DNA from: an uncultured Lentisphaerales bacterium
GTDB taxonomy: Bacteria > Verrucomicrobiota > Kiritimatiellia > RFP12 > JAZUKQ01
Assembly: GCA_964565855.1 (NCBI GenBank)
Contig: CAZMGQ010000003.1
Coordinates: 1 to 30,746, forward strand
Direction: 5' to 3'
DNA: 30,746 bases
This document shows, one piece after another, positions 7,742-30,746 of the stretch. Each line of letters starts with the position of its first letter. Within the stretch, counting starts at the first letter, position 1. The notes below the pieces were generated by a model, which did not search any database, was not told the DNA's origin, and was given only the letters and a program-made list of their open reading frames with translations. Position numbers and translations under genes: made by a program.

Positions 7742-10447
7742 TTATTTGGCATCCAGGAAGCCTTCGAGCCTCCGGATACGCGTGGGGTGACGCAGCTTGC
7801 GCAGAGCCTTGGCTTCAATCTGCCGGATGCGTTCGCGCGTCACACTGAACTGTTTGCCGACCTCCTCCAGGGTGCGTGAATAGCCGTCGGTAAGACCAAA
7901 ACGATGGTCGAGCACCTGACGCTCACGTTCTGTGAGGGTATCGAGCACCTCGTGCAACCGCTCCCGCAACATGCTGTAGGCGGCCATTTCCGAGGGGTTT
8001 TCGGCGGATTTATCTTCGAGGAAGTCGCCGAAGTGGGCATCGTCGCCATCCCCGACCGGACTCTGCAGCGAAATCGGCTGCTGAGCCATTTTGAAGACGG
8101 CCTTGACCCGTTCGACGGGGATTTCCATCTCTTCGGCCGCTTCTTCGGGGGTGGGTTCGCGCCCCAGCTCCTGCACGAGCTTTTTCTGCACACGCATGAG
8201 CTTGTTGATAGTTTCGATCATATGCACCGGAATACGGATCGTACGGGCCTGGTCGGCGATCGCTCGCGTCGCAGCCTGTCTGATCCACCAAGTGGCATAG
8301 GTCGAAAACTTGTAACCGCGCCGATATTCAAACTTCTCCACCGCCTTCATCAGGCCGGTATTGCCTTCCTGAATCAGGTCGAGAAAAGAGAGGCCGCGAT
8401 TCATGTATTTTTTGACGATGCTGATGACCAGGCGCAAGTTGGCCTCAACCATTTCGGTCCGGGCCTGCTGCCCCTCGCGCATCGCGGTACGCAGCTCTTC
8501 AAACTCCGACATGAACTGTTCACGCGGCATCATGAAGCAGCTTTCAATTTCGGCGGCAACTTTGCGGGCCTCGGCGATCTGCATGTCGCGCCGCTTGCTG
8601 CGACGCTGCTTGCTGAGACGCTCGATTTCGCCCGTCTTGTAACGGTATTGTTTGAAAATCTGTTCATCGGCCTGCGCAGCCATCGATTCGATAACCTTTT
8701 GCTTAAAGTTCAACTCCTCGCACAGGATACGCAGGTCATCGCGCAATGCATCGAGATTGCGCTGGTGTCGCGCGGCATCGGCCGCCTTGCGCCCGGCAGC
8801 AGCCGAAGCGCGGAACTCTCGTTCGATCTTGCCCTGGTGCTTGACAAGCTCACTCTTGAGACGCGGCAGCAGCTCCATGTATGCTTCGCGACTGTCGATA
8901 TACTTGTCGGCCACGATACGGTCAAAGCGTTCTTCCCCGGTTTCGATGCGGGCAATCAGATCAAGGTGCATCCGGGTCGCAAATCCAAAACGGTTGAAAA
9001 GAGCCCGGATGCTCTTTTCCGAGTCCTCAATACGTTTGCAGATCTCCACCTCCTGCTCACGCGTCAGCAGGGCCACCTGGCCCATCTGATGCAGATACAT
9101 GCGGATGGGATCGTCAAAATAGTCTGGCTTGGCCGCCTTGGAGGCGTCCGCAGTTTCCGTTTCACTGCGATATTTGTCAACGTCCGCAGCATCAATGATG
9201 TCGATGTCCATGCTGCGCAGGTTGTTCAGATACTTCTCGATATCGGTATCTTTGATAATGCTTTCCGGCAAAGCCTCATGAACATCCTCGAAGGTCAGGT
9301 ACCCCTGTGCCTCGGCGAGGGTGATCAGTTCGCGGATTTTTTCATTTCTTTCTTCACGCCGCTCTCGCTCGGCCGCAATTTCCGGATCCAGATGTGCATT
9401 TTCGGGCAGTTCAAACTGATAGGTGTCCTCTACACCGTAACCATGGTCATCGTCAGGGTCAGGGGAGGCCACGCGCAGGGTGGAGACAGTCTCGTCATCC
9501 TCGTCTTCCTCATCGTCGAAATCACTGTCCAGAACATCGTCAACATCTTCCAGCCCGCTTTCAGCAGCCGCCAGGTCGTCCTCACTCGGCTCTTCTTCAG
9601 CGTCGGGATCAATGTCGATATCCTCGATATCGTCAACCTCAATGTCATCAACACCGTCAGCATTGTGGTCCAGATACTCATCGACCTCAACCGATTCGAC
9701 ATCCGTCGCAGCTTTCTTGCCCTTGGGTGTCGCAGGTGCAGTTGACTTGTCACTGGTTTTCTTGCGAGTGGTACTGGCGGCAGGTTTGGCTTTGGGCTTT
9801 GTAGCTGGCTTAGTTGCTTTGGTTTCAGTCTTCGGCGCAGCCTTGGCTTCGGCAGCAGGCTTTTTGGCAGTAGTCTTATTACTTTCCGCGACTGTTTTAC
9901 CAGTTGATTTAGCTGTAGCAGGTTTGCTGGCCGTCTTGGCATCTTTTGCTTTGGCTGCAGTTTTGTCCGGTTTGGTGGCGGCCTTCGCAGACGACTTGGT
10001 TTCAGCCTTGGCTTTCGGCGCCGCCTTGGTTTTGGCAGCGGGCTTTTTGGCAATAGTCTTCTTGCTCGCAGCGGCTGTTTTACCGGTTAATTTAGCTGTA
10101 GCTGGCTTGCTGGCCGTCTTGGCAGTTTCAGCTTTTTTGGGTGCAGCTTTGGCTGGTTTGGTAGCGGCCTTCGTAGTCGACTTGGTTGCAGCCTTGGTTT
10201 TCGGCGCCGCAGCCTTGGCTTTAGCAGTGGATTTTACCGCAGTAGCCCTCTTTTTGCTTGCCGCAGTTGTTTCAGCTGCTGCCGGTTTGCTTGCCGTTTT
10301 GGTGGTTTTTGTTTTGGCAGTAGTTTTCTTCTTGCCGGTGGCAGCAGCTTTGGTGGCACTGCTGCTTTTGGTTCCAGTCTTCTTTGCAGTGCGGCTGGTT
10401 GCCTCACTGGTCTCTGTGTTTTTGTCAGTTTTTTTGGCTTTAGCCAT
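7742..10447 (-). CDS. rpoD: Primary RNA polymerase sigma-70 factor with long K/A/T-rich and acidic N-terminal extension
   Basis: Region 1.1 ([21 protein letters not shown]), 1.2 ([11 protein letters not shown]), 2 ([13 protein letters not shown]...[15 protein letters not shown]...RTIRIPVHM) and 4.2 ([31 protein letters not shown]). Confidence 0.97.
9832..10210 (-). repeat. In-frame imperfect tandem duplication (about 183-186 bp unit) in the rpoD basic tail
   Basis: AAPK-coding anchor TCGGCGC(C/A)GC starts at + strand 9832, 10015 and 10201 (offsets 183 and 186). Peptide units both contain KAATKP...[15 protein letters not shown]....K.T.AKKPAA. Confidence 0.85.
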
Positions 10448-10511: not shown

Positions 10512-11477
10512 TCAGTCGATTACCTTGTCGGGCAGGTCACGTCCTCTGACGAGTAACCAGCCCACATTTTTAGTACCCTTGGCTGCTCCGTCTTCGGTTT
10601 GTACGTTGCGAAACATTTTTTCGATATGTCCATCGGTGAAAATTACTAAACTCCAGGGGATTTCCTTTTTTTTGCTGTCACGCAGTTTGATTGGTCCATC
10701 GTGGTAGCCCCCGATCCCCGGCACCTTGTTTTCCTCGATATCGTCCACCACTTCGGTGCGGTGTTTATCCTCCACATTCAGCACACAGTTTTTCCCGATC
10801 ACATTGCTGTCAGTCCAGGGCACACCCGAATGTTCGGCAAACAGCACGAGGCGGCTGGCGTTGGGGATAACGTTCTTGGTAACGTTGCCGTCAGTAACTT
10901 GCGTCGTTTCTTTGGTTCCAATCCAGGAGATTTTGCGACGATGCCAGTTTTTACGAGTTTCTTGATAGAAAAATTCGTTCATCGCATAGGTCAGATAAAC
11001 ACGATCTTTTCGTTCCGTGGCACCGACTTTTTTACGAAACACTTTATCATGTACTGCAACCGGACAAGCGTAAGCCGATACCTCTCCCTGCATGTAGGCG
11101 AATAACGTTCCGTTCGTTATTCCGCGCAGCGCATCTCTGCCGAAATGGCCTGCGTCCCTCATGTTGGGCTTTTCAGGATTAACTGACGGACGTCTCGGGA
11201 AGGCCGTGCCTTTATCAGGCAGCCATGAAATCCACCCCCTGAACTCATGCCAGCCGTTATGGTTCTGCAACTCAAAAGAACCGGCTCGCGGCATGCTGCC
11301 GGCATGGTCCACTGCATGGGTATGGGCTGCACTTTGCAGGTTTTTAAGGTTCATCCGGCAAGTTGCCTCGCGCGATGAGCGCAATGCTCCCAGAAGCCTG
11401 GGTGCCACCAGGCCGAGCAACACGAGAATGATGGTGATGACAACCAGCATCTCTATGAGTGTGAAGGCTTTACGCAT
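10512..11477 (-). CDS. Prepilin-type N-terminal cleavage/methylation domain protein (DUF1559-like, PVC type)
   Basis: [18 protein letters not shown]-terminus, ...TCRMNLKNL segment, YAMN motif and C-terminal H-Xn-DG (YHDG...VIFTDGHIE). Confidence 0.85.
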
Positions 11478-11693: not shown

Positions 11694-11703
11694 TGTCGGC
11701 CAA

Positions 11704-12261
11704 ATGAGCAAGGTTGATTCGGCCAAAGATTTGGTGCGCCGTCTTAAGCACGATCCGGATGAAGCTTCCGTGGGTCTCCTGCTGAAAACTTACGGTCCGC
11801 GTCTGTTCGGTGCTGCCATGGGTCTTTGCGGCAATACGACAGATGCCGAAGATCTGGTGATTATGACATTGCAAAAAGCCGTGCATAATATTGCCGGGTT
11901 CCACGAGCAATCGTCGCTCTTCACCTGGTTGTACGGTATCCTCTACAATCAGCACCTCATGCTGCGGCGCAAATATGCCCGGTCGCGCATGATCTATGTT
12001 GACCAACTGCCTGAAACCGCCGACGAGAGCGTCGCGCATCCGCTCGAGGATATCGCCGCCTCCGAACGTGCAAAGGAGTTGCTGGCGGCAATCGACCAGT
12101 TGCCGGAAACCATGCAGGATGTGGTGCGGTTGCGCTATTTCGGTGAGATGAAAATCGCCGATATAGCAAAAAATCTCAAAATACCCGTCGGGACGGTCAA
12201 GTCACGCCTTTTCAACGCCTTGTCGCAGTTGAAAAGCTTCTTGTCGACCACTTCAAATTAA
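11704..12261 (+). CDS. ECF (extracytoplasmic function) RNA polymerase sigma factor
   Basis: Start moved to MSKVDS. Region 2 DAEDLV...SLFTWLYGI; region 4 IDQLPETMQDVVRLRYFGEMKIADIAKNLKIPVGTVKSRLFNA. Confidence 0.93.
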   Translation: MSKVDSAKDLVRRLKHDPDEASVGLLLKTYGPRLFGAAMGLCGNTTDAEDLVIMTLQKAVHNIAGFHEQSSLFTWLYGILYNQHLMLRRKYARSRMIYVDQLPETADESVAHPLEDIAASERAKELLAAIDQLPETMQDVVRLRYFGEMKIADIAKNLKIPVGTVKSRLFNALSQLKSFLSTTSN

Positions 12262-12315
12262 ATTTTTGAAAAAAATGAACCTTTTGCACTGACCCTGCAA
12301 CTAACTGTTGAAAGG

Positions 12316-14586
12316 ATGATTATGATTTGCAGAGACTGCCGCATTGCATGTTTTGACCTTCTGGATGGGACGATCAGCCCCGGACTGGAAGAAAAGGTGA
12401 CTGCTCACCTTGAAGCATGTGCCGGTTGCAGACTGTTTCTGGAGGAAGAAAAAGAGCGTCTGGGGAATTGGCCGGAACTTGTTGCGGAACTCCCGTCGGC
12501 CCCCTCCTTCTTTACGTCCGAAGCAAACATCAAGCGCATACTGCATGGAGAAGCAGCGTCCGACAGTGAGAAGCCACTGCCGCAGCAACGTCTTGCCAAC
12601 CTGTGGTCGCACTTGGGCAAAATGCGCAAAATTGCAGCAATCCTGGTTATCGCAACCATGCTTTCACTGTTCTCCTGGGCTTCGATCAAATTGGCAAGAG
12701 CGGTTTTCGGCCGCTCCAAAGACCCGGGCGAACGAGTTGTTCAGGTGGAAAGCAGCCCGATGGTGACGGAGTCAGAGCCCGTCACGCCCGCAACATCGGT
12801 GGCTGATTTCACGCCTGTAGAAACCGGTGCGGGTTACACTGGAGACTTGTCTCCTCTGGACCCGGAACCGGGCAGTTATGGAGCAATCGCTTCGCATAGT
12901 CAATCAAGTCTGGAAGGAGACTTCGGGATGAAAATGAACCGGATGGTTACAGCAGGGGCAGTCGCCGCCATGATAGCCGCGACATCAACAAATGCCGCAA
13001 TATTCACGGGTGTTTCCGGCTATGACTGGAGTCAGCCATTAAACTGGAGCACGGGTCTGGTGCCGGATGCAAATGAAGACGCGATCATCGGCACAACGGC
13101 GCCTGCCGGTGCTTTGGACCCGGCGGTCCAACTGAATGCGGGAGCCACTGGCACGGCCAGGAGCCTGACGATCGGTCAGGAGGCCGGGGCGGGCGGGAGT
13201 CTGACCGTCAACAACACGAGACTCGAATTACTGGCGGGCGATTCCTTTGTAGGCAAGTCCGGCGAGGGTAGCCTGACTGTGACAAACAACGGACAACTCA
13301 ACGGTGGCAAGATCACCGTCGGGAGTGTGAAAAACTCCAAGGGTGAACTCGTGATTGCCAATGGTGCCAGCTTCAATCCCGGCAATACCGTTGTAATTGC
13401 CGCGGCAGGGAGTGGCAGCCTGCTCGTTTCGGGTGGGTCGCTCAACTCGGCTGACTGGGGGCTGACCGGGGCTTCAACCGTCGGCGGCCAGGCGGATATT
13501 CTATTTGACGACGAGGCGGAGGCAACGCTCAAAAACATCCTGCTGGCAGGCTGGGGCGTTAACTCCAGCGCTGAGCTGACGGTCGATGGAAACTCGACAG
13601 TCGATGTGCTCGAAACACTGACTCTTGGCAACAGTGTCGGATCGGTGGGAACAGTGGTTTTCAAGTCGGGCACCTGGATTCAAAAAGGTATCAGCTATGT
13701 TGGCAACAAAAAAGATGCCAGTGGCTCGGTGCACTTGCAGGGCAGCGGATTTCTGCCACGAAATCAGGTATGGCTGGCGTCCGAGGCCGGTAGTTCGGGG
13801 TTGATTGAGGTTGCCGACACCTCTCTGATGTGGACAAATAACATTGCCACTGTTTATGTCGGACATTCGGGTGAGGGTCAGTTTAATGTCGTTGACAGCA
13901 GCCTGACGATCCGCCCGGCGCTGTTGTACGTCGGCAATGCCGCCACGGCCTCGGGTTTGTTCAATATGTCCGGTTCGGATGTCACCAACCAAACCACGAT
14001 TGTCGGCAGCACTGCCGGCAGCTCCGGCAGAATAACCCAAACCGGCGGCAGCCTGACGGTCAATGACTACTTCCGTGTGGCGGCCAACGGGACAGGCAGG
14101 TATCTCAGCAGCGACGGTGTTTTCAATGGCAGATGGGTGCAGATTGCCGCTTATGGCAGCGGTACTACGTCAGTGGGAGCCGTGGAGCTGTCCGGTACCG
14201 GGAGAGTCTTCAATGTTTCCGGCAGCCTGGCCGTTGGCACGCAGGGAAGCGGCGGCCTGACAAACCGGGTCGCCCAGTTGGCGGGCGGTATCGATCTGGC
14301 AGCCTCGACAACGCTGACGGTCGGCAATACGGGCAATATCCACATCCAGTTTGAGGAGGATCCGGTCGAGACAGGCATGTACTGGGGCCTGCGCTGGACT
14401 GGCGACCATGTTGCCGAACTGATCGCTTTGAGCGAGACGGTTCCCGCCAAACTGAGCTGGGATGTCGAGGGTGTCAATCCGTATTACCGGCCGGATGTCG
14501 GCATCCACTACGATGGCGACTTTACTTATGTGGGCATTCCCATTGCCAAGTTTGCCACCAACCCCACGCTGATCATTATCAACTAA
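12316..14586 (+). CDS. Zinc-finger (ZAS, zf-HC2-like) membrane anti-sigma factor fused to a secreted autotransporter-passenger-like repeat protein
   Basis: HLEACAGC (HxxxCxxC) plus N-terminal Cys; TM KIAAILVIATMLSLFSWASI; P/S/T/E linker; second signal-like segment MKMNRMVTAGAVAAMIAATSTNA; VG..G.G.L.V beta-strand repeats; ends PTLIIIN. Follows the ECF sigma gene. Confidence 0.85.
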   Translation: MIMICRDCRIACFDLLDGTISPGLEEKVTAHLEACAGCRLFLEEEKERLGNWPELVAELPSAPSFFTSEANIKRILHGEAASDSEKPLPQQRLANLWSHLGKMRKIAAILVIATMLSLFSWASIKLARAVFGRSKDPGERVVQVESSPMVTESEPVTPATSVADFTPVETGAGYTGDLSPLDPEPGSYGAIASHSQSSLEGDFGMKMNRMVTAGAVAAMIAATSTNAAIFTGVSGYDWSQPLNWSTGLVPDANEDAIIGTTAPAGALDPAVQLNAGATGTARSLTIGQEAGAGGSLTVNNTRLELLAGDSFVGKSGEGSLTVTNNGQLNGGKITVGSVKNSKGELVIANGASFNPGNTVVIAAAGSGSLLVSGGSLNSADWGLTGASTVGGQADILFDDEAEATLKNILLAGWGVNSSAELTVDGNSTVDVLETLTLGNSVGSVGTVVFKSGTWIQKGISYVGNKKDASGSVHLQGSGFLPRNQVWLASEAGSSGLIEVADTSLMWTNNIATVYVGHSGEGQFNVVDSSLTIRPALLYVGNAATASGLFNMSGSDVTNQTTIVGSTAGSSGRITQTGGSLTVNDYFRVAANGTGRYLSSDGVFNGRWVQIAAYGSGTTSVGAVELSGTGRVFNVSGSLAVGTQGSGGLTNRVAQLAGGIDLAASTTLTVGNTGNIHIQFEEDPVETGMYWGLRWTGDHVAELIALSETVPAKLSWDVEGVNPYYRPDVGIHYDGDFTYVGIPIAKFATNPTLIIIN
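12914..12930 (+). promoter_or_regulatory. Internal in-frame ribosome-binding site and start codon
   Basis: AAGGAG (12914-12919), 8 nt spacer, ATG at 12928 (codon 205 of the 756-aa ORF), followed directly by a signal-peptide-like sequence. Confidence 0.6.
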
Positions 14587-14589
14587 AGA

Positions 14590-17500
14590 GTGTCCCTGAT
14601 GCGCTTGATATCCGGCCCGGTCACAGGGGTCTTGTTGATGCTGGCCTGTTTGTCTGCCGGACAGGCCGGGCAGTTTACAGTCATGCAGGCTGAAGAACGC
14701 CGGCAGTTGGTCGTGGCGGCCGAGGCGCCGGACGGCAACGCAGCTGCTAAAGTCGCGTGGGAGATTCCGGGGGGTGGGGTGGGGTCATTCAAGATGACTC
14801 CCGCCATTCCTCTCCTGCCGGGGCAGAAGTCGCAGGTTGTCTCACGGCTGTTTCTGCCTCCGGGGTGCGGCCTGAAGTCGTTCAACCTGCGGGTGGAAGA
14901 CATCTCCGGCGAGACTTTTCAGTACTACCGTCTGCTGCCAGCGGGGGCCGAAGGCTGGATCAGCCTCACCAACACAATCGACACGGCCCGGCCACCTGCA
15001 AAGGCCAACTGGGGAGGCAATAACGATGCCGTTATGGACTCCCCGCTCTCGGTCTCAGGCATCGGTTTCGAGTTTGATCCGCTTGTTAGGAGTGGTCACT
15101 TCTTCTTTGATTTTGAGCAGCCGGTTCTGCTGTCGGCCGCGCCTCCAGGCGTTGCAGTTTCGCTGACGGATGACAAAATAAAGCCGCTACTGGTGGCTGC
15201 AGCGGACAGAAAACAGTCCATGACCGTCGGAACAGTGGCGGGAGATAGCCTCAGCCTGATCGTCAGAAAAAACAGGGACGGTACCAGAAGCTTCGACCTG
15301 ATATTGACTGCTGAATCGCAGGTGGAGGAGTTCGGCGGTGCCCTGTTCATGGTCAGGATCTATCTGCCTGCCCCGGGGGTTCTGAGTAATCTCCGACTGA
15401 ACCTCAAAAATGCCGCGGGTGAACATTACGCCTTCGAACAGACTCTTTCCGGTCAGGCTGGCGGCTGGCAGACAGTCGCATTTCCTACCGACGGTGCGCT
15501 CCGCAGTCCCTTGCGCAAAAGTGGTCCGGCCTCAAATAACGGTTCGCTCTTCCCGCTGCGGCTGCATTCGCTGGCGGGGGACTTCCGCACTCAGGAGACC
15601 ACGGAGGACTGGATTGCCTTCAACAAGCTTGAGTGGGCCTATCTGCCTGCGCGCTTGAAGGTCGATTTTGTCGCCGGCAATGAGATCAACATAGTCGATA
15701 CCGGCAGGCAACAAACCCTCGGCTGGCGCATCACAAATCCCCGCAGCGGAGCCCTGGCTGCGAGGTTGCAGTATGTCGCAAAAGACATCTACGACAGTAT
15801 AGTCGCCTCCAATACCGTCCCTTTGAACCTGGATGCCAGGTCCGAAACTTTTGTCGGGCTGCCGATACCTGACAAGCAGGGTATCTACTACGTCGAGACG
15901 TCATGTCTGGAAGAGGACGCCGTCGGTCCTGCTGCCATCGGTAAATACCGTTTTGCCCATGTCGTGCCAGCCGGTCCCCGTACCCGTAAAAAGGATGATT
16001 TTATTTTTGGAGTCTGTTCGCATTCACAGTGGAAAACTCCCGCAGAACAAAAACTGCATGCGCTGGCCGCTTCTATCTGCGGCGTCAATGTCCTGCGTGA
16101 AGATTTTTTATGGGAGCGCATGGAGCCGCGTCAGGGCGAGTGGAATTTTGCTTACTTCGACAGTGTTTTGGATACGTTCAAGGAGCGCGGCATCGAAGTA
16201 GCACCTCTTTACTGTTACCGTCCCGATTGGGCCGTCGCCAAGGACTGGAAACCACTCAATCCCGGGTCCGAACGCGGCAAGCGACCGGACTATCAGCATT
16301 GGGCGAACTTCGTGCGAATGGTCGCCACCCGCTACCATGAGCAAATCAATTTTGTCGAGATCTGGAACGAGCCGGACCTGATGGGGTATGCCAACTTCCC
16401 GGTTGAAGAATATATAGAGATGATGCGAATCGCCCATAGCGAAACAAAGAAAATCGCACCGGAGGTCACGGTGCTCACCGGTGGCTTTACCATGATGCCG
16501 CCTTTTTACAACATGGTCGATCCACGTCACATGGAGAAAGTTCTGGTTAACGGAAAAAGCTTTTACGACATCCATGCATTTCACGTGCATGGGTCGTATC
16601 TGCACTACAAAAACCAGATCGAACAGATGCTGGCATTGCGTCAGCGCCTCGGTACCGAAGCTCCCTGGTGGGCCAATGAAACTGCCATCACGGCGACCGG
16701 ATTCGGCGAATATGTGCAAGCTGTAACGCTGATACAAAAACTGATTTTCACCTGGGCCCGTGGCGCAATCGGCTACAACTGGTTTTCGCTCTACAATGCC
16801 GGCGGCAACCCCGATTATGGCGAACACAACTTCGGGCTGCTGACACGCGAACTGCATCCCAAGGCCGCTTTCTGCACCTACAACACGACCGCCCGTCTGC
16901 TGGCCGGTGGGCGCTTCCTGGGGGATTTCGATCTGGGACGTGATCTGGACGCCTTCCTTTTCAAGGCTGAAGACGGCAGTTATGTAATCGCCTGCTGGGG
17001 CAACACCAGTTTGCAGTATCCGGCCGTCATCCGCAATATCAGGAATGCTGTCGGCATGATCGATATTTTCGGCAACGAAACCATGCTCGAACCTTCTGCC
17101 GGTGTAATATTCTTTGAAGTCGGTGCCGAACCAAGATTCATCAGAATCAGCGGACAGGACAGCGTGCCAATCGTAGGAATTCCGCCGATACAATTCCCGC
17201 GTCAGGTCGAACTGACACTCAGCAGGGTCGAAACGATCAGCCTGCCGGTCCATAACCCGTTTGATGCGCCTGTTGCAGTTACAACTTCGGTCCAGTTGCC
17301 GGAGGGCATGACGACGGTGACGCCTGTAATTGAGCGGCAGCTCGCCGCTGGTGCAACCGCCGTGATTCAGTTTGTCTGTAAAGTCGATCCGGTTTTCCGC
17401 TCTTACGGCAACCGGAAGCAGTCGCTCAAAGTTCAGGCAAGCTTTGCCGATATCTGGTCGAAGACTGTCGATGTCGGGATATTGTCAGCAACTGCCATTC

Positions 17501-18114
17501 CGAGGTCCGAATTCGCGGATGAGCCGCAACTGATCCTCGACAACATTTCTCAGCACAGAAGTTTGATCCCCAATGCGCCTGATCTGGAAAATCTCCAATG
17601 GTCTGGTGCCGGGGACCTCAGCGCAAAAGTCTGGCTGGCCTACAAAGCCGATTCGCTGTCGCTGAAGGTTGAAGTGCTCGATGATCAGCATGTGCAGAAG
17701 CATGTGGGTGGAGACCTGTTCAATTCCGACTCGATCCAGATCGCAATCCAGCCGCCCGAGGCGCCGGATTTCTGGGAAATCGGCGTCGCCTGCGGCAGAG
17801 AAGGCGAGAGTCTGAGTCATATCTGGATGACCCCGAAAGGACTCGACAAGAGTGAGCTCGCAAAGAGTTTGGCCTTTGAAACACGCCGTGATGAAGGTCG
17901 CAAAGTCACAACTTACATCATGATTGCTCCCCTGAAGGAGTTAGGTCTGACGGATGCCCTCAAGGGGCGGCAGATCGGGTTCAATATCCTGGTCAACGAC
18001 AACGATGGCGGTGTGCGCGAAGGTTACCTGGAGTTTTCCCCCGGACTTGGCGCAACCAAAGATGCGTCATTATTTCTGCGCATGCAGTTCGAAGGCACGC
18101 CGATTGCTCCGTAA
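14590..18114 (+). CDS. Secreted multidomain glycoside hydrolase, clan GH-A (GH39/GH5-like) with C-terminal CBM9-like domain
   Basis: Signal peptide (...LLMLACLSAGQA); VLREDFLWERMEP..GEWNF; EIWNEPD (acid/base); WANE (nucleophile); FGLL; C-terminal DLSAKVWLAY...VLDD...DSIQIAI...GFNILVNDNDG. Start may be GTG 14590 or ATG 14599. Confidence 0.75.
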   Translation: MSLMRLISGPVTGVLLMLACLSAGQAGQFTVMQAEERRQLVVAAEAPDGNAAAKVAWEIPGGGVGSFKMTPAIPLLPGQKSQVVSRLFLPPGCGLKSFNLRVEDISGETFQYYRLLPAGAEGWISLTNTIDTARPPAKANWGGNNDAVMDSPLSVSGIGFEFDPLVRSGHFFFDFEQPVLLSAAPPGVAVSLTDDKIKPLLVAAADRKQSMTVGTVAGDSLSLIVRKNRDGTRSFDLILTAESQVEEFGGALFMVRIYLPAPGVLSNLRLNLKNAAGEHYAFEQTLSGQAGGWQTVAFPTDGALRSPLRKSGPASNNGSLFPLRLHSLAGDFRTQETTEDWIAFNKLEWAYLPARLKVDFVAGNEINIVDTGRQQTLGWRITNPRSGALAARLQYVAKDIYDSIVASNTVPLNLDARSETFVGLPIPDKQGIYYVETSCLEEDAVGPAAIGKYRFAHVVPAGPRTRKKDDFIFGVCSHSQWKTPAEQKLHALAASICGVNVLREDFLWERMEPRQGEWNFAYFDSVLDTFKERGIEVAPLYCYRPDWAVAKDWKPLNPGSERGKRPDYQHWANFVRMVATRYHEQINFVEIWNEPDLMGYANFPVEEYIEMMRIAHSETKKIAPEVTVLTGGFTMMPPFYNMVDPRHMEKVLVNGKSFYDIHAFHVHGSYLHYKNQIEQMLALRQRLGTEAPWWANETAITATGFGEYVQAVTLIQKLIFTWARGAIGYNWFSLYNAGGNPDYGEHNFGLLTRELHPKAAFCTYNTTARLLAGGRFLGDFDLGRDLDAFLFKAEDGSYVIACWGNTSLQYPAVIRNIRNAVGMIDIFGNETMLEPSAGVIFFEVGAEPRFIRISGQDSVPIVGIPPIQFPRQVELTLSRVETISLPVHNPFDAPVAVTTSVQLPEGMTTVTPVIERQLAAGATAVIQFVCKVDPVFRSYGNRKQSLKVQASFADIWSKTVDVGILSATAIPRSEFADEPQLILDNISQHRSLIPNAPDLENLQWSGAGDLSAKVWLAYKADSLSLKVEVLDDQHVQKHVGGDLFNSDSIQIAIQPPEAPDFWEIGVACGREGESLSHIWMTPKGLDKSELAKSLAFETRRDEGRKVTTYIMIAPLKELGLTDALKGRQIGFNILVNDNDGGVREGYLEFSPGLGATKDASLFLRMQFEGTPIAP

Positions 18115-27048: not shown

Positions 27049-28200
27049 TCAGCCGCTGGCGGAAGTGATAATACAGTCCTCCTCTGAGTATGGACCGGCT
27101 GTTTTCGTAGCCAGGATGCCAACCTTGCCGGGACGCTGCCTGATACGCAGTCCCGTCAGCCGTATGTTGCGTGCATGCCCCTGCAGCAGAACTTCGGCCT
27201 CACCGTCGGTGGCACAGTTTTCTTCCAGCAGGCAGTTTTCGAAAACATGGTCGCTGGAGGCGTGGGTTGGCGGCACGTCCATGAAGGCGATACCACAGCC
27301 GCCATTGCGGCGGATGGTGAGGCGTCGGTTGATATGACGGTCGTCGCGGGCCCAGATGAAGATTCCGGGACCGCGGTTGTTCTCAAAAATCGAATCCTCC
27401 AGAATACTGTCACGGACTCTCAGACAGTAAAAGAGACCGGATTCATGGCAACCACGGGCTGCGCAACCGGCAATCCGGTAGCGATTTGAGCCGCTGCCGG
27501 GATGAAAACCATTGCCCAGGCAATCCTCGGCGACACAGTCGAGCAGTGTCATGTCGTCGCAGGTTTGAAACGAAAAGCCATCGCCATTGAAATCGCGCGC
27601 CACGATCCGGCGGGCGGTGATGCGATCGGCACGGAGCGCATAAAAAGCACTGCCGCGACAGCCGTTAATATGGCCATTTTGGGCCGAACTGCCATCAAGG
27701 ACCAGATCTTCGATGCCGGCGTCGGAGACATCCACCGCTTCGACAAGCGGGTGCAGGGTACTTACGCTGGCTGATTCATTGTAGTCCATGTTGTGGGTAC
27801 GGGAAAAAAACCAGGTGTCTCCCTCCCGCCGGGTCAGGGTTCCGGTGGTGTCAGAAAAACCGCCGGATTTGGGAGAGGAAATCAGGATGCCGTCGCCGAC
27901 TTTGAAGAGGTCGGGCTGATCGGTGATGATGTCGTTGTGACCAAAGCCGAGAATGCTGGCGACCTTTGCCCGGCGCATGGCAGTTTTGCGCAAAATGGTC
28001 TTCGGGCTGGTTCCCTGAACAGTCACGTTGTCGCGCAACTGCAGGGCATTATCCATCTGGAAAACTCCGGCTGAGACCCTGACAGTGCCACCTCCGAGTG
28101 TCGCGACATGATCGACGGCACTCTGCAAGTGTAATCGGGTAAAACCGCGTATATCACAATTGTCGTTTCCGACGGATATGATGGGTTGGCTGATTGTCAT
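27049..28200 (-). CDS. Right-handed parallel beta-helix (pectin-lyase-like) protein, no signal peptide
   Basis: Start moved to MTISQP. LQSAVD...GGGTVRVSAGVF, then repeats such as DFNGDGFSFQ, DCLGNGFHPGSG, NNRGPGIFI and RNGGCGIAF. Confidence 0.8.
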   Translation of the reverse strand: MTISQPIISVGNDNCDIRGFTRLHLQSAVDHVATLGGGTVRVSAGVFQMDNALQLRDNVTVQGTSPKTILRKTAMRRAKVASILGFGHNDIITDQPDLFKVGDGILISSPKSGGFSDTTGTLTRREGDTWFFSRTHNMDYNESASVSTLHPLVEAVDVSDAGIEDLVLDGSSAQNGHINGCRGSAFYALRADRITARRIVARDFNGDGFSFQTCDDMTLLDCVAEDCLGNGFHPGSGSNRYRIAGCAARGCHESGLFYCLRVRDSILEDSIFENNRGPGIFIWARDDRHINRRLTIRRNGGCGIAFMDVPPTHASSDHVFENCLLEENCATDGEAEVLLQGHARNIRLTGLRIRQRPGKVGILATKTAGPYSEEDCIITSASG

Positions 28201-28453
28201 TGTGTTTTCTCGTGGCAGACAGGGGTGGAAAGCTGGTCCAGCACATGGCAAAACCTGAGAGTACTACAATCAGACGACATCTGAGAAGACACAACCCAAA
28301 AACCCAAAACTGCGAGAGATTTTGCACACCTATGCGCAAGTCCTTGCAATTGCGGTTCGTGAGGACACTCACCCTCCATGAAATGTTCACCCGATGGTTG
28401 ATATTCAAAAATGGAGGGCTCATGGGGATATTTGCTCGAAAAATGACTTTTTA

Positions 28454-28623: not shown

Positions 28624-30711
28624 ATGAATCAGACGTTTCTGTTTAAGTTTTCCAGAGCTGTTGTTTTGGCGACAGCCGTTCTGCTTGGCTTTTCTGCCCG
28701 GGCGGACGACTCTATTGTACCAATGGACACTTCGACGGCTTGGGTGAGTGCCCAGAGTGGCGACTGGGATGACTCTATGACCTGGAGTCCGGAGGGAGTT
28801 CCGGCCGCAGGCGACAGTGTCTCTATTCTCAAGGATCACAAGGTAACGGTTCTTACCCAGACCGAACGGGTCGCTGACCTGGAGGTCAAGGCCAAGGGCA
28901 CGCTCTCTTTTGACGGTTGGGACTCGCTGCTGCAGGCGGATACTGTGGCGATTTATGGCACGGTAACCCACGAGCCTAACACAGCGGACGAGCCTGACGA
29001 ATATGGCGAGTGGATTCCGAATGCCCGTGTCAATATCGACTGTGCATCGTTGATGGTTGCCGCCGGTGGCATAATCAATGTCAACCAGATGGGCTATGGT
29101 CCAGAGTCCGGCCCCGGCGGAAGCGACAATACTGGTGTTGGAGCTGGTTACGGAGACAATTCCTACTACGCAACCGCCACAAGAGGGCTTGCATACGGTT
29201 CATACCTCGAACCGGTTGATCCCGGCAGCGGTGGTACAGCGGGATCTGGTGGTGGAGCCGTACGGATAAACGCAACGGGTGCCGTAGTGGTGGAGGGAAT
29301 AATCACCTCCAATGGGGCCGGATCGCGCCATAATAGCTCCAGCAGTTCCGGCGGATCGGTTTATATAACTTGTGAAACCATTGCCGGCTCCGGCACGATC
29401 AGGGCCAACGGTGGTACCTATACGGGCAATCATCGCAATAATGCTGCAGGCGGTCGTATTGCCGTGATTTACGATGCAGAGGAGCAGAGCGAAATTGCAC
29501 TGCCAGACCTGATTTTGTCCGTGGCAGCGAATCCCAGGGGAATCGGGACGCTTTATACAACCGACAACCAGTTTATCACACGTGCAGGTGGCGAAATCAG
29601 GCACACCGGCCAGTGGATGACGCCGGGACTCACCGAATGGAGTCCGGACAGCATCACGGCACAGAATGTTTGGTTCAAGTTTGTCAACCCGGGGATGGTT
29701 CTCAACATACCCGATGATATCACCGTCACGGGCTCGAACTTTTATCAGCACAAGCTGGAGTTTGTCGATGCTATCATCGAATGTGGCGGGGATATAAACG
29801 TCAGCAAAGCATCTCTCGGTGTCTTACGCTCCGATACACCTGTCAGACCCTTTAACAAAGTGGCAGTTGCCGGCGACATCATCCTGCAAAACTCGGCGAC
29901 CATGAATTTCGAAGCAGGAGTAACCAATGCTGTCGCACCCGACAGCACTTTGTTTGTCGAGACGCAGAACCTGACACTGGGCGAAGGCTGCATCGTCTAT
30001 CCGGTGGCTGAACCGGTCACCGGAGGCACGGTCAAGTTCCGCGTGACTAATCTGATACTGGCCGACACGGCCTCGATCAACGCCTCGAATCGTGGTTTTG
30101 GCGGAGGCGTGGACGGTCAGGATGGTTATGGTCCGGGTGGCGGCATGGCCAAGACTGGAAATATATCTACAGGCGGCGGTCACCATGGTGGCCGGGCAGG
30201 GACCGGCGGCGACCGGACTTATGGACTGGCACACTATCCTTATCAGCCCGGTAGTGGTGGAGCCAGCCACGATATCGATGTAACCGGCTCCATGGGAGGC
30301 GGTGCTATCATTATCGAGGCCCGCCAGCTAGTGGATATCGGTGGTGGAAAATTGCTCGCTGATGGTGAGAGGGGCTATCACGGCTCTACCTATGCCGGTG
30401 GATCCGGTGGGTCAGTGCTCGTCTCCTGCCGCTCTTTCCACGGCTCCGAGGGTGCTGTTGTCAGCGCCGATGGAGGTAATGGCAGTGGTGGTGGCGGCGG
30501 TGGTGGCGGACGCATCGCCATCTGGGAAAAAGTGCAGCAGCCCTTTATCAGGTTTTCGCTCAGTGATGGCGAAGAGTTGGCGGAGCTGGAAAACTATGCC
30601 GGCAGCGTGAGTGTTGCGCCCGGCACCAGCACAAGTGGAGGAACTGCACATCCGGGCACCATCATGTTCCTCGCGAGCAAACCGACCCAGACGCTGATTA
30701 TTATCCAGTAA
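28624..30711 (+). CDS. Secreted glycine-rich repeat protein (G8-like N-terminus, two Gly-rich modules, C-terminal TLIIIQ)
   Basis: Signal peptide ending FSARA; SGDWDD..TWSPEGVPAAGDSVSI; duplicated PGSGG...GGG(A)(V/I).I...SGGS(V).....GG..GGRIA module. Confidence 0.8.
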   Translation: MNQTFLFKFSRAVVLATAVLLGFSARADDSIVPMDTSTAWVSAQSGDWDDSMTWSPEGVPAAGDSVSILKDHKVTVLTQTERVADLEVKAKGTLSFDGWDSLLQADTVAIYGTVTHEPNTADEPDEYGEWIPNARVNIDCASLMVAAGGIINVNQMGYGPESGPGGSDNTGVGAGYGDNSYYATATRGLAYGSYLEPVDPGSGGTAGSGGGAVRINATGAVVVEGIITSNGAGSRHNSSSSSGGSVYITCETIAGSGTIRANGGTYTGNHRNNAAGGRIAVIYDAEEQSEIALPDLILSVAANPRGIGTLYTTDNQFITRAGGEIRHTGQWMTPGLTEWSPDSITAQNVWFKFVNPGMVLNIPDDITVTGSNFYQHKLEFVDAIIECGGDINVSKASLGVLRSDTPVRPFNKVAVAGDIILQNSATMNFEAGVTNAVAPDSTLFVETQNLTLGEGCIVYPVAEPVTGGTVKFRVTNLILADTASINASNRGFGGGVDGQDGYGPGGGMAKTGNISTGGGHHGGRAGTGGDRTYGLAHYPYQPGSGGASHDIDVTGSMGGGAIIIEARQLVDIGGGKLLADGERGYHGSTYAGGSGGSVLVSCRSFHGSEGAVVSADGGNGSGGGGGGGGRIAIWEKVQQPFIRFSLSDGEELAELENYAGSVSVAPGTSTSGGTAHPGTIMFLASKPTQTLIIIQ

Positions 30712-30744
30712 GAGAAAAAGGGGGGGCAAGTGTTACCTTGCCCC
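30712..30744. terminator. Rho-independent terminator-like hairpin (U-tract on the minus strand; possibly bidirectional)
   Basis: GGGGCAAG-TGTTAC-CTTGCCCC, preceded on the + strand by GAAAAAG. Confidence 0.6.
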
Positions 30745-30746
30745 AG

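Follow-up and report, generated by a model that had tools for sequence, protein, structure and literature searches.

The window analysed here, 30,746 nucleotides of DNA from an uncultured Lentisphaerales bacterium, encodes two otherwise dissimilar proteins that finish in the same short run of residues, which raised the question of whether this ending is a signal that sorts or attaches secreted proteins. Translation of both ends bore out the shared TLIII(N/Q)-stop motif of the original prediction. ORF1 (positions 12316 to 14586) ends in ...NPTLIIIN, with positions 14563 to 14586 reading P-T-L-I-I-I-N-stop, and ORF2 (28624 to 30711) ends in ...TQTLIIIQ, with positions 30691 to 30711 reading T-L-I-I-I-Q-stop; these and all other features described below lie on the forward strand. 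The claim that the other proteins of the window lack this ending also held, as a six-frame scan of ORFs of at least 80 amino acids detected no further ORF ending in four or five [LIVMF] residues and one polar residue. About 2e-4 pairs with an identical pentapeptide at positions -6 to -2 would be expected among 21 window ORFs. The DNA 15-mer ACGCTGATYATTATC was present at both tail sites and nowhere else in the window (0.07 occurrences expected); the 15-mer follows from the common peptide and codon usage, and a DNA-level repeat was rejected as the source of the likeness.

The domain content of the 756-amino-acid ORF1 was examined by Pfam and NCBIfam searches, homolog alignment and an AF2 model. 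From the N terminus, the protein consists of a zf-HC2 anti-sigma domain, a transmembrane helix (residues 106 to 125), an acidic linker, an internal signal-peptide-like segment, a beta-helix passenger, a C-terminal domain and the tail. The passenger bears T5SS/PEP-CTERM-associated repeats, as had been proposed from the sequence (TIGR04393, E = 2.9e-10). Within ORF1, the sequence contains a Shine-Dalgarno element, GGAAGGAGA (12912 to 12920), an ATG at 12928 and a Sec-type signal peptide, MKMNRMVTAGAVAAMIAATSTNA, the whole spanning 12912 to 12996. A 47%-identical homolog, L079, has a matching internal start (AAGGAA, 7 nucleotides, ATG and a hydrophobic segment), and a stand-alone secreted passenger may be made from this start. 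The C-terminal domain of about 125 amino acids (14173 to 14544; ...YWGLRWTGDH...LSWDV...VGIHYDG.FTYVG) stands directly ahead of the tail and had no Pfam or NCBIfam match. A phmmer search of 1.84e9 representative sequences returned 218 matches, mostly through this domain and near the C terminus of the matched protein. The tail, a PEP-CTERM or dockerin-like repeats come after the domain in these proteins.

ORF2, of 695 amino acids, comprises a signal peptide, a Gly-rich right-handed beta-helix with a weak G8 match and the tail, as judged from Pfam, homologs (222 were obtained) and an AF2 model. A Foldseek search of this model against the PDB returned only generic beta-helix matches, with E values above 0.01. 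The W..W..VP..D..I cap noted earlier on both mature N termini was seen and was present also in the ORF2-family consensus. Neither an autotransporter barrel nor PEP-CTERM was found in ORF1 or ORF2 by Pfam, NCBIfam or AF2 analysis, again as anticipated.

The AF2 models were used to locate the two tails relative to the fold. The ORF1 model had a pLDDT of 96, and its linker and tail (AKFATNPTLIIIN-stop, 14545 to 14586) formed a coil past the last packed strand, with a pLDDT of about 73 in the tail. Similarly, the ORF2 model had a pLDDT of 88, and its linker and tail (ASKPTQTLIIIQ-stop, 30676 to 30711) formed a coil after a packed strand at residues 679 to 684, with a tail pLDDT of about 51. Packed structure stopped 11 to 13 residues ahead of the stop codon in both models, and in these predictions the tail lies outside the fold of both proteins.

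Homologs of ORF2 indicated that the window motif belongs to a wider pattern. The tail terminated 103 of 120 ORF2 homologs, and its consensus was a variable, often Pro-rich linker leading to G-T, a hydrophobic quartet and a final R (less often H, K, Q or N). Among the 103 tails, G was present at position -7 in 87 and T or S at -6 in 78; positions -5 to -2 were hydrophobic, and R occupied -1 in 71, with H, K, Q, N or Y in the others. P was found at -10 in 55 tails and at -9 in 41, and a P-P-P or P-x-P often stood two or three residues ahead of G-T. The register to the C terminus was fixed, while the linker varied from 11 to 20 residues. Both window tails depart from this consensus, with P or Q at -7 and N or Q at -1, and the ORF1 tail had a PSSM score of only 6.4. 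In ORF1 homologs, this tail was kept as PTLIIIN, PTLIVVK or PTLIMVQ. The motif named in the original prediction is present, but only as a lineage variant of a broader G-T-hydrophobic x4-R C terminus.

The distribution of the tail was then determined in tail-bearing loci, retrieved by a profile search with the C-terminal sub-alignment of the ORF2 family, which amounted to 945 kb from 34 MAG assemblies plus the window. Of 571 ORF C termini, 71 reached a PSSM score of at least 8, as did 57 of 276,598 internal positions, the tail thus being about 600-fold commoner at C termini, a frequency biased by the retrieval of all loci via one family. The suggested enrichment among signal-peptide proteins was apparent in the same loci: with signal peptides called by a crude heuristic, the tail was carried by 47 of 163 signal-peptide-like ORFs and by 7 of 350 others (odds ratio, 20; p = 5e-19). 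Exclusion of the seed family left 6/113 and 2/343, respectively (odds ratio, 9.6; p = 0.004). One MAG had as many as seven tail-bearing proteins in the portion sampled. Eight carriers lay beyond the ORF2 family, among them two PATR proteins as well as SBBP and Laminin_G_3 proteins. The tail terminated PATR, SBBP beta-propeller and LamG proteins in Lentisphaerae and Kiritimatiellae MAGs, and it also terminated at least 67 of 149 proteins related to the ORF1-type C-terminal domain. At least five passenger types carry the tail, a portable module that follows Gly-rich beta-helices, SBBP propellers, PATR beta-helices, LamG domains and the YWGLRW...TYVG domain, passengers that are unrelated to one another. 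Seven isolated tails (at E of 10 or less) and the full proteins had no Pfam or NCBIfam match, and full-text searches of the literature on sorting signals of Kiritimatiellae, Lentisphaerae and PVC bacteria, PEP-CTERM, exosortase and beta-helix proteins did not find the motif described. From these comparisons, the tail is apparently a widespread, undescribed tag of secreted proteins in Lentisphaerae and Kiritimatiellae.

The relationship of the tail to PEP-CTERM was examined in families in which both occur. Among 120 homologs of a tail-bearing PATR protein (L026), 19 ended in the tail and 65 in canonical PEP-CTERM, and one of the latter was 60% identical to L026. PEP-CTERM also follows the ORF1-type C-terminal domain in two proteins (P0349 and P0369), and MAFFT alignment of proteins with this domain paired TYVGVDIP-PPPGT-IVIM-R with TYVGLVIP-EPAS-VVLGIMGAVLLAG-RR. 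By alignment, the relatives in two passenger families bear either the tail or canonical PEP-CTERM in an equivalent position, the PEP-CTERM-bearing relatives coming from other lineages. With a PSSM of the PEP-CTERM head, tails of the ORF2 family, which is independent of the PSSM, scored 2.2 SD above internal controls, yet the scores were negative in absolute terms; the commonest register was that of a head plus one terminal residue (68/103). The Glu of PEP was rare in the tails, being usually Pro or absent, and the window tails have a single Pro (NPT and KPTQT). The terminal uncharged run was bimodal, at 6 to 7 residues in the tails versus 13 to 18 in canonical PEP-CTERM relatives, with few intermediates. 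A regular-expression search detected no canonical PEP-CTERM among the 571 ORFs of the tail-bearing loci, and the flanks of three PEP-CTERM-bearing homologs contained no other tagged genes.

Both signals occupy the C termini of signal-peptide proteins, several per genome, on unrelated and mostly unannotated passengers, and both are typical of the PATR and T5SS/PEP-CTERM-repeat proteins of PVC bacteria. Furthermore, the tails often open, as PEP-CTERM does, with P-x-P-[GSA]-[TS] ahead of a hydrophobic stretch, and each signal finishes in a basic residue. PEP-CTERM (TIGR02595; PF07589), the signal of the exosortase (EpsH, XrtA) sorting system, is characterized by a near-invariant Pro-Glu-Pro at its start and by strict co-occurrence with an EpsH-family exosortase in the genome. 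It differs in having about 15 to 20 hydrophobic residues and an Arg cluster at the end, whereas the tail has 4 to 5, no transmembrane helix and a single terminal basic residue (N or Q in the window), with G-T as its best-conserved pair. The HMMs for PEP-CTERM matched neither seven tail segments at E of 10 or less nor the full proteins. The tail may be read as a PEP-CTERM head (P-x-P-[GSA]-[TS] and the first hydrophobic turn) fused to one basic residue, minus the membrane-spanning core of about 15 residues.

The described short prokaryotic C-terminal sorting signals (LPXTG, PEP-CTERM, GlyGly-CTERM, PGF-CTERM, MYXO-CTERM and others) are all tripartite and include a membrane-spanning helix (PMC1569441; bioRxiv 10.1101/2023.06.07.544157). 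Seven attributes have been listed for them, namely C-terminal location, several copies per genome, three or more signature residues, a transmembrane segment, a basic cluster, a signal peptide and unrelated carriers (Haft 2023, bioRxiv 10.1101/2023.06.07.544157). The tail has five of these, the location, multiplicity, G/T/P signature, signal peptide and unrelated carriers, but not a membrane-spanning segment or a basic cluster of 2 to 5 residues. The expectation that the motif is too short for a transmembrane helix agreed with its 4 to 5 hydrophobic residues and terminal uncharged run of 6 to 7.

The T9SS CTD (Por_Secre_tail; TIGR04183; PF18962) is likewise a C-terminal signal on Sec-exported adhesin-like, beta-helix, propeller and LamG proteins, with many cargos per genome, and in its last strand, too, hydrophobic residues precede a final K or Q. 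It is, however, a folded Ig-like domain of about 70 to 100 amino acids from Bacteroidota, whereas the tail is a unit of about 8 to 20 residues from PVC bacteria that is unfolded in AF2 models; the T9SS CTD HMM did not match the tails at E of 10 or less. The beta-signal of BAM-dependent outer membrane proteins (OMPs) resembles the tail in being a short hydrophobic motif that is obligatorily last, but it has alternating hydrophobic residues and a terminal aromatic residue and belongs to a beta-barrel protein. In the tail, the hydrophobic residues are consecutive, the final residue is Arg and the carriers are soluble beta-helices; the absence of the terminal aromatic residue of an OMP signal, already remarked upon for the window proteins, extended to the family, with R, H, K, Q or N as the last residue in 94 of 103 tails. 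The 12-stranded C-terminal beta-barrel translocator that characterizes classical autotransporters (T5aSS) was not seen: Pfam found no Autotransporter domain in the window proteins, and no barrel was present in the AF2 models, whose last folded part is a beta-helix or a small domain.

The most likely role of the tail is to sort proteins, or anchor them at the surface, after Sec export, as a functional equivalent of PEP-CTERM. The sequences and models show the motif, its strictly terminal position, its modularity, its association with signal peptides, its place outside the predicted fold and its exchange with PEP-CTERM; the function, and any processing, we infer. We consider it probable that TLIII(N/Q)-stop represents, in this window, an extreme-C-terminal tag that is widespread on secreted proteins of the PVC classes Lentisphaeria and Kiritimatiellia and has such a role. 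Sec export and signal-peptide cleavage would come first and would leave a flexible free C-terminal strand. A dedicated factor, whose gene would lie in another part of the genome, would read this strand from the carboxy terminus and would direct the tagged protein to the cell surface or fix it there. This reader may be an enzyme that resembles exosortase and sits on the outer face of the inner membrane, or it may be a receptor of another kind. The membrane helix of PEP-CTERM is thought to anchor in the inner membrane and so present the motif to exosortase (Haft et al. 2006, PMC1569441), and an exosortase route for the tail is uncertain because 4 to 5 hydrophobic residues cannot anchor in this membrane.

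The flanks of the tail-bearing genes were searched for such a factor. All-against-all clustering of the 571 flank ORFs identified no recurrent neighbor gene. Pfam assigned the nine most hydrophobic flank proteins to transporters, DsbD, an M50 peptidase, a TPR protein and a MASE1 kinase; none of the nine was an exosortase, a rhomboid or a CPBP protein, a result that covers MAG-contig flanks and says little of whole genomes. The sorting or attachment tag of the original prediction was partly supported: the comparative data favor a tag, but the dedicated machine is pure conjecture, with no partner gene in the flanks.

An unlikely alternative is that the tail is an intermolecular sticky strand, an aggregation-prone hexapeptide held between gatekeepers (Pro upstream and Arg at the end), and not a sorting signal. 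Beta-augmentation or donor-strand exchange would then link subunits head to tail or dock the protein onto a surface or outer-membrane partner after general export. This reading is consistent with the run of four beta-branched or hydrophobic residues between P/G-T and R, with a tail left unpacked in monomer models, with a conserved W..W..VP cap at the N terminus that might take up a strand and with a neighborhood in which no dedicated machine was found. However, strictly last-residue placement and exchange with PEP-CTERM and dockerin-like modules suit targeting or anchoring better, and the propeller and LamG carriers have no beta-helix cap.

It is less probable still that a PDZ-type protease or quality-control factor of the periplasm recognizes the tail, which would be a degron or an activating ligand in the way that OMP C termini are for DegS; for ORF1, turnover of the anti-sigma factor would be coupled to envelope status. 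The fixed register from a free carboxy terminus and the existence of one carrier, encoded in a conserved ECF operon, that is fused to an anti-sigma factor would accord with this. Against it, proteolysis would await dozens of large adhesin-like proteins in each genome, and the exchange with PEP-CTERM would be unexplained. The last residue of known PDZ ligands is hydrophobic or aromatic but that of the tail is Arg, and ORF1 may yield a passenger free of the anti-sigma domain through its internal start.

A functionless tail, either a decayed PEP-CTERM remnant passed on by descent or a chance likeness of two window proteins, is strongly disfavored and very improbable. The tail does resemble a truncated PEP-CTERM, and both window tails are atypical of the consensus. 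A remnant, however, would not hold the G, the T, the four hydrophobic positions and the final R in fixed register across 30 to 40% identity and unrelated families, the run lengths form two discrete classes, and the chance expectation in the window is the very low value given above. Read-through or frameshifting into a downstream hydrophobic segment that restores a full PEP-CTERM-like anchor was refuted, since the in-frame hydrophobic signal peptide of the next gene, one codon past the ORF1 stop (TAA), is an arrangement not conserved in L079, where the next gene overlaps by 1 nucleotide in another frame, while beyond the ORF2 stop lie a GC-rich hairpin and the contig end, and the tail terminates more than 170 independently called proteins.

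We tentatively suggest, with somewhat less than even confidence, a minimal new class of sorting signal of about 8 conserved residues, with no membrane anchor and read from the free carboxy terminus, that has displaced PEP-CTERM in Lentisphaeria and Kiritimatiellia and serves tens of surface proteins per genome. Such a tag would keep the head and the terminal basic residue, without the helix, and would nevertheless replace PEP-CTERM on related proteins; either exosortase-type recognition would need far less than assumed or another receptor would exist. The host group comprises poorly studied, ecologically important polysaccharide degraders of guts, sediments and groundwater. A C-terminus-anchored model of the tail would annotate many hypothetical giant MAG proteins as surface or secreted, and its profile would serve phylogenetic profiling to locate the machine.

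The genes around ORF1 suggest one further role for a tagged protein. The operon begins with an ECF sigma factor (11695 to 12261; Pfam Sigma70_r2 and r4, TIGR02937), and ORF1 is followed by a secreted glycoside-hydrolase-like protein with CBM9 (14590 to 18114; Pfam), which ends in ...FEGTPIAP and has no tail. As one window cargo is fused in frame to the ECF anti-sigma factor, the anti-sigma-fused cargo may act as a tagged decoy that reports the state of the pathway and controls the glycoside-hydrolase operon. The order of sigma factor, anti-sigma::passenger and glycoside hydrolase was kept in L079 to L081, with the glycoside hydrolase gene conserved downstream of the ORF1 homolog.

Translation confirmed that ORF1 and ORF2 share the TLIII(N/Q)-stop ending noted in the original prediction. 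ORF1 (12316-14586, plus strand, 756 aa), a fusion of an anti-sigma domain to a beta-helix passenger, ended in ...GIPIAKFATNPTLIIIN-stop, with PTLIIIN-stop being the product of 14563-14586. ORF2 (28624-30711, plus strand, 695 aa), a beta-helix protein, ended in ...FLASKPTQTLIIIQ-stop. A six-frame scan of the window for ORFs of at least 80 aa ending in four to five [LIVMF] residues and one polar residue detected none besides these two, and comparison of C-termini showed that the tail was, as predicted, absent from the GH/CBM9 protein and from every other window ORF. Only ∼2e-4 pairs with an identical pentapeptide at positions -6 to -2 were expected among the window's 21 ORFs. The 15-mer ACGCTGATYATTATC was present in the window only at the ORF1 and ORF2 sites (0.07 expected); no DNA-level element was seen behind it, and it was read instead as the same peptide in the same preferred codons. 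The predicted features of ORF1 were also borne out by a zf-HC2 N-terminus and T5SS/PEP-CTERM-type repeats (TIGR04393; E, 2.9e-10), and neither an autotransporter barrel nor PEP-CTERM was found in ORF1 or ORF2 with Pfam and NCBIfam. Directly 3' of the ORF2 stop, at the contig end, lies a GC-rich hairpin (GGGGGGCAAGTGTTACCTTGCCCC; 30715-30746), probably the stem of an intrinsic terminator, and its presence confirms the tail as the true end of ORF2. Just upstream of ORF2 on the minus strand, a second right-handed beta-helix protein (Beta_helix/NosD; 400 aa; 27049-28251) has no tail (C-terminus ...CIITSASG), and hence not every local beta-helix protein is tagged.

The motif proved to be real, but its definition as TLIII(N/Q) was too narrow, as a wider form (G, T, four hydrophobic residues, and R) was found in homologs. 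ORF2 had 222 detectable homologs, all metagenomic, and those with a source name came from Lentisphaerae or Kiritimatiellae MAGs. Among the best 120 of the 222, the tail formed the C-terminal end in 103, with G at -7 in 87 of these, T/S at -6 in 78, hydrophobic residues at -5 to -2, and a last residue that was R in 71, H in 9, K in 8, Q in 4, Y in 3 and N in 2. Most of the 17 tail-less sequences look like truncated or frameshifted predictions. Upstream of the tail, these homologs had Pro at -10 and -9 and an extra strand, G-T-V-V-W/F, at -18 to -14. Judged by sequence, the window tails are an uncommon version of the motif, since P/Q replaces G and N/Q replaces R. For ORF1, a word search yielded only two homologs, both of which kept the tail (PTLIIIN and PTLIVVK). 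Four fetched loci (L001, L002, L021 and L041) encoded tandem giant ORF2-family paralogs of 1,600 to 2,300 aa with a tail on each (for example, L002 166-6768 and 6920-13624). As the giant paralogs of MAG CAITUY01 all ended in Q (..GTIFTFQ, ..GTVFLMQ), a lineage-specific preference for the last residue is suggested, akin to the N/Q endings of the window.

The most informative result of the analysis was an exchange of the tail with PEP-CTERM. Homologs of a tail-bearing PATR protein from the fetched loci (L026) included 19 with the tail ending and 65 with a canonical PEP-CTERM ending (PEP, a helix of ∼15 to 20 residues, and then RRR), one of the latter being 60% identical to L026; named PEP-CTERM bearers were Verrucomicrobiae, Chthoniobacterales, Planctomycetes and Akkermansiaceae. 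A full phmmer search of 1.84 billion representatives with the ORF1 passenger produced 218 matches (E ≤ 1e-3), most of them through the C-terminal domain (14173-14544, plus strand; ∼125 aa; YWGLRWxGDH...L(T/S)WD...VGI(Y/H)...TYVG), which no Pfam or NCBIfam model matched. This domain was near-invariably at the protein's C-terminal end; what came after it was the tail in at least 67/149 proteins, canonical PEP-CTERM in a few (e.g., P0349 and P0369) and dockerin-like repeats (NILDLIFVRNKLNTQCP) in others. MAFFT aligned ...TYVGVDIP-PPPGT-IVIM-R with ...TYVGLVIP-EPAS-VVLGIMGAVLLAG-RR, and on this alignment the tail corresponds to a PEP-CTERM head joined to a basic last residue and lacks the membrane core. 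The independent ORF2 family was then scored with a PSSM derived from 82 PEP-CTERM heads. Tails scored 2.2 SD over internal controls, 44% lay beyond the controls' 99th percentile, and the best register was head plus one last residue in 68/103; with absolute scores below zero, the tail resembles a PEP-CTERM head but does not match it. The terminal uncharged run was bimodal (6 to 7 versus 13 to 18 residues, with few intermediates), and canonical PEP-CTERM occurred in 0/571 ORFs of the tail-bearing loci. The tail is related to PEP-CTERM in form and position but lacks defining features of that family. We consider it reasonably probable that the tail serves, after Sec export, as a sorting or surface-anchoring tag, a functional counterpart of PEP-CTERM and probably its derivative or ancestor.

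The position of the tail relative to the fold was examined in AlphaFold2 models. ORF2 (101 homologs) was modeled as a long beta-helix (pLDDT 88) in which the last packed strand, residues 679-684 (GTIMFL), was followed by 11 coil residues (pLDDT ∼51); a structure search with this model found no significant neighbor besides generic beta-helices. The ORF1 passenger (58 sequences) formed a beta-helix with a small C-terminal domain (pLDDT 96), its last strand being FTYVGIPI and its final 13 residues a coil with the model's lowest confidence. Across the ORF1-type family, the TYVG strand lay 11 to 20 residues from the C-terminus, and the register of the motif to the C-terminus was constant. A structural cap is disfavored by the coil in the models, the variable linker and the constant C-terminal register. 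In the models the tail is outside the fold, and it behaves like a tethered peptide whose free end is the part that is read. An intermolecular sticky strand serving assembly is an unlikely reading of such a peptide, and recognition by a PDZ-type protease, as its ligand or as a degron, is less likely still.

Carriers of the tail were surveyed in 78 loci (915 kb; 34 MAG assemblies named as Lentisphaerae, Kiritimatiellae, 'Verrucomicrobiota' or PVC group) chosen because they encode proteins related to the ORF2 C-terminus. A PSSM covering the final eight residues scored ≥8 at 71/571 ORF C-termini versus 57/276,598 internal positions, a ∼600-fold difference. A functionless remnant or chance similarity is a very improbable reading of the tail. 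In the fetched loci, 67/77 ORF2-family members had the tail, as did eight proteins outside this family: one SBBP beta-propeller, two PATR beta-helix proteins, one Laminin_G_3 protein, three proteins with no Pfam match and ORF1. Up to 7 tail ORFs were present per MAG in the sampled part. The expected enrichment among ORFs with signal-peptide-like N-termini was observed, with tails in 47/163 signal-peptide-like ORFs versus 7/350 others (OR 20; p, 5e-19; all ORFs) and, outside the seed family, in 6/113 versus 2/343 (OR 9.6; p, 0.004). The frequencies of this survey are no more than indicative, since the hydrophobicity rule used to call signal peptides was crude and the choice of loci favored one family. 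ORF1 was one of the two non-seed 'exceptions', and an internal signal peptide precedes its passenger.

Compared with the sorting-signal criteria of Haft (PMC1569441; bioRxiv 10.1101/2023.06.07.544157), the tail has the location, multiplicity, signature residues, signal peptides and unrelated carriers but lacks the transmembrane segment and basic cluster. The original interpretation was supported in part, by the tag-like position, carriers and signal peptides; as to the dedicated machine, the flanks of tail genes in the fetched loci contained no recurrent neighboring gene and no exosortase. The model for PEP-CTERM is that its helix presents the motif to exosortase on the outer side of the inner membrane (PMC1569441), a role that the tail cannot fill. 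A sorting tag of this form could be read by an exosortase-like enzyme whose active site contacts the four hydrophobic residues peripherally, or by a different receptor binding the free C-terminal strand. No Pfam or NCBIfam model matched the tail and no description was found in the literature searched; it appears to be undescribed so far.

ORF1 is the second gene of a three-gene operon (11695-18114; ECF sigma factor, anti-sigma::beta-helix passenger and GH-CBM9) that was also found in a 47%-identical relative (L079 9536-15789). The third gene encodes a secreted, GH42/GH39-like protein of ∼1173 aa with CBM9, and the unit looks like a glycan-sensing regulatory unit. The ORF1 TAA is followed by one codon and then, in the same frame, by the GH-gene start and signal peptide (14584-14670); read-through into a helix beyond the tail is refuted by a lack of conservation, as the corresponding L079 genes are in different frames and have a 1-nt overlap. 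Within ORF1 (12912-12996, plus strand), downstream of the acidic linker that follows the anti-sigma domain and TM helix, a strong in-frame Shine-Dalgarno sequence (GGAAGGAGA, AAGGAG; 12912-12920) lies 8 nt before ATG 12928, the first codon of a canonical Sec-type signal peptide (MKMNRMVTAGAVAAMIAATSTNA followed by A). In L079 (∼10590-10680; 47% identical), AAGGAA, a 7-nt spacing, ATG and the hydrophobic segment were kept, and hence a stand-alone, secreted 552-aa form of the tagged passenger may be produced as well. If there were no internal start, the second hydrophobic segment would be a topology problem for the fusion. We speculate that the anti-sigma fusion might let the cell monitor the tag pathway.

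Two further minus-strand genes lie in the window. The primary sigma factor RpoD (7742-10447; 901 aa) has an N-terminal extension of ∼365 residues without a Pfam match, region 1.1 beginning at residue 366. The other gene (10512-11477) encodes a 321-aa protein carrying the prepilin-type methylation motif (N_methyl) at its N-terminus; it is a member of the pseudopilin-like class, of which Lentisphaerae and Kiritimatiellae have a greatly expanded set.
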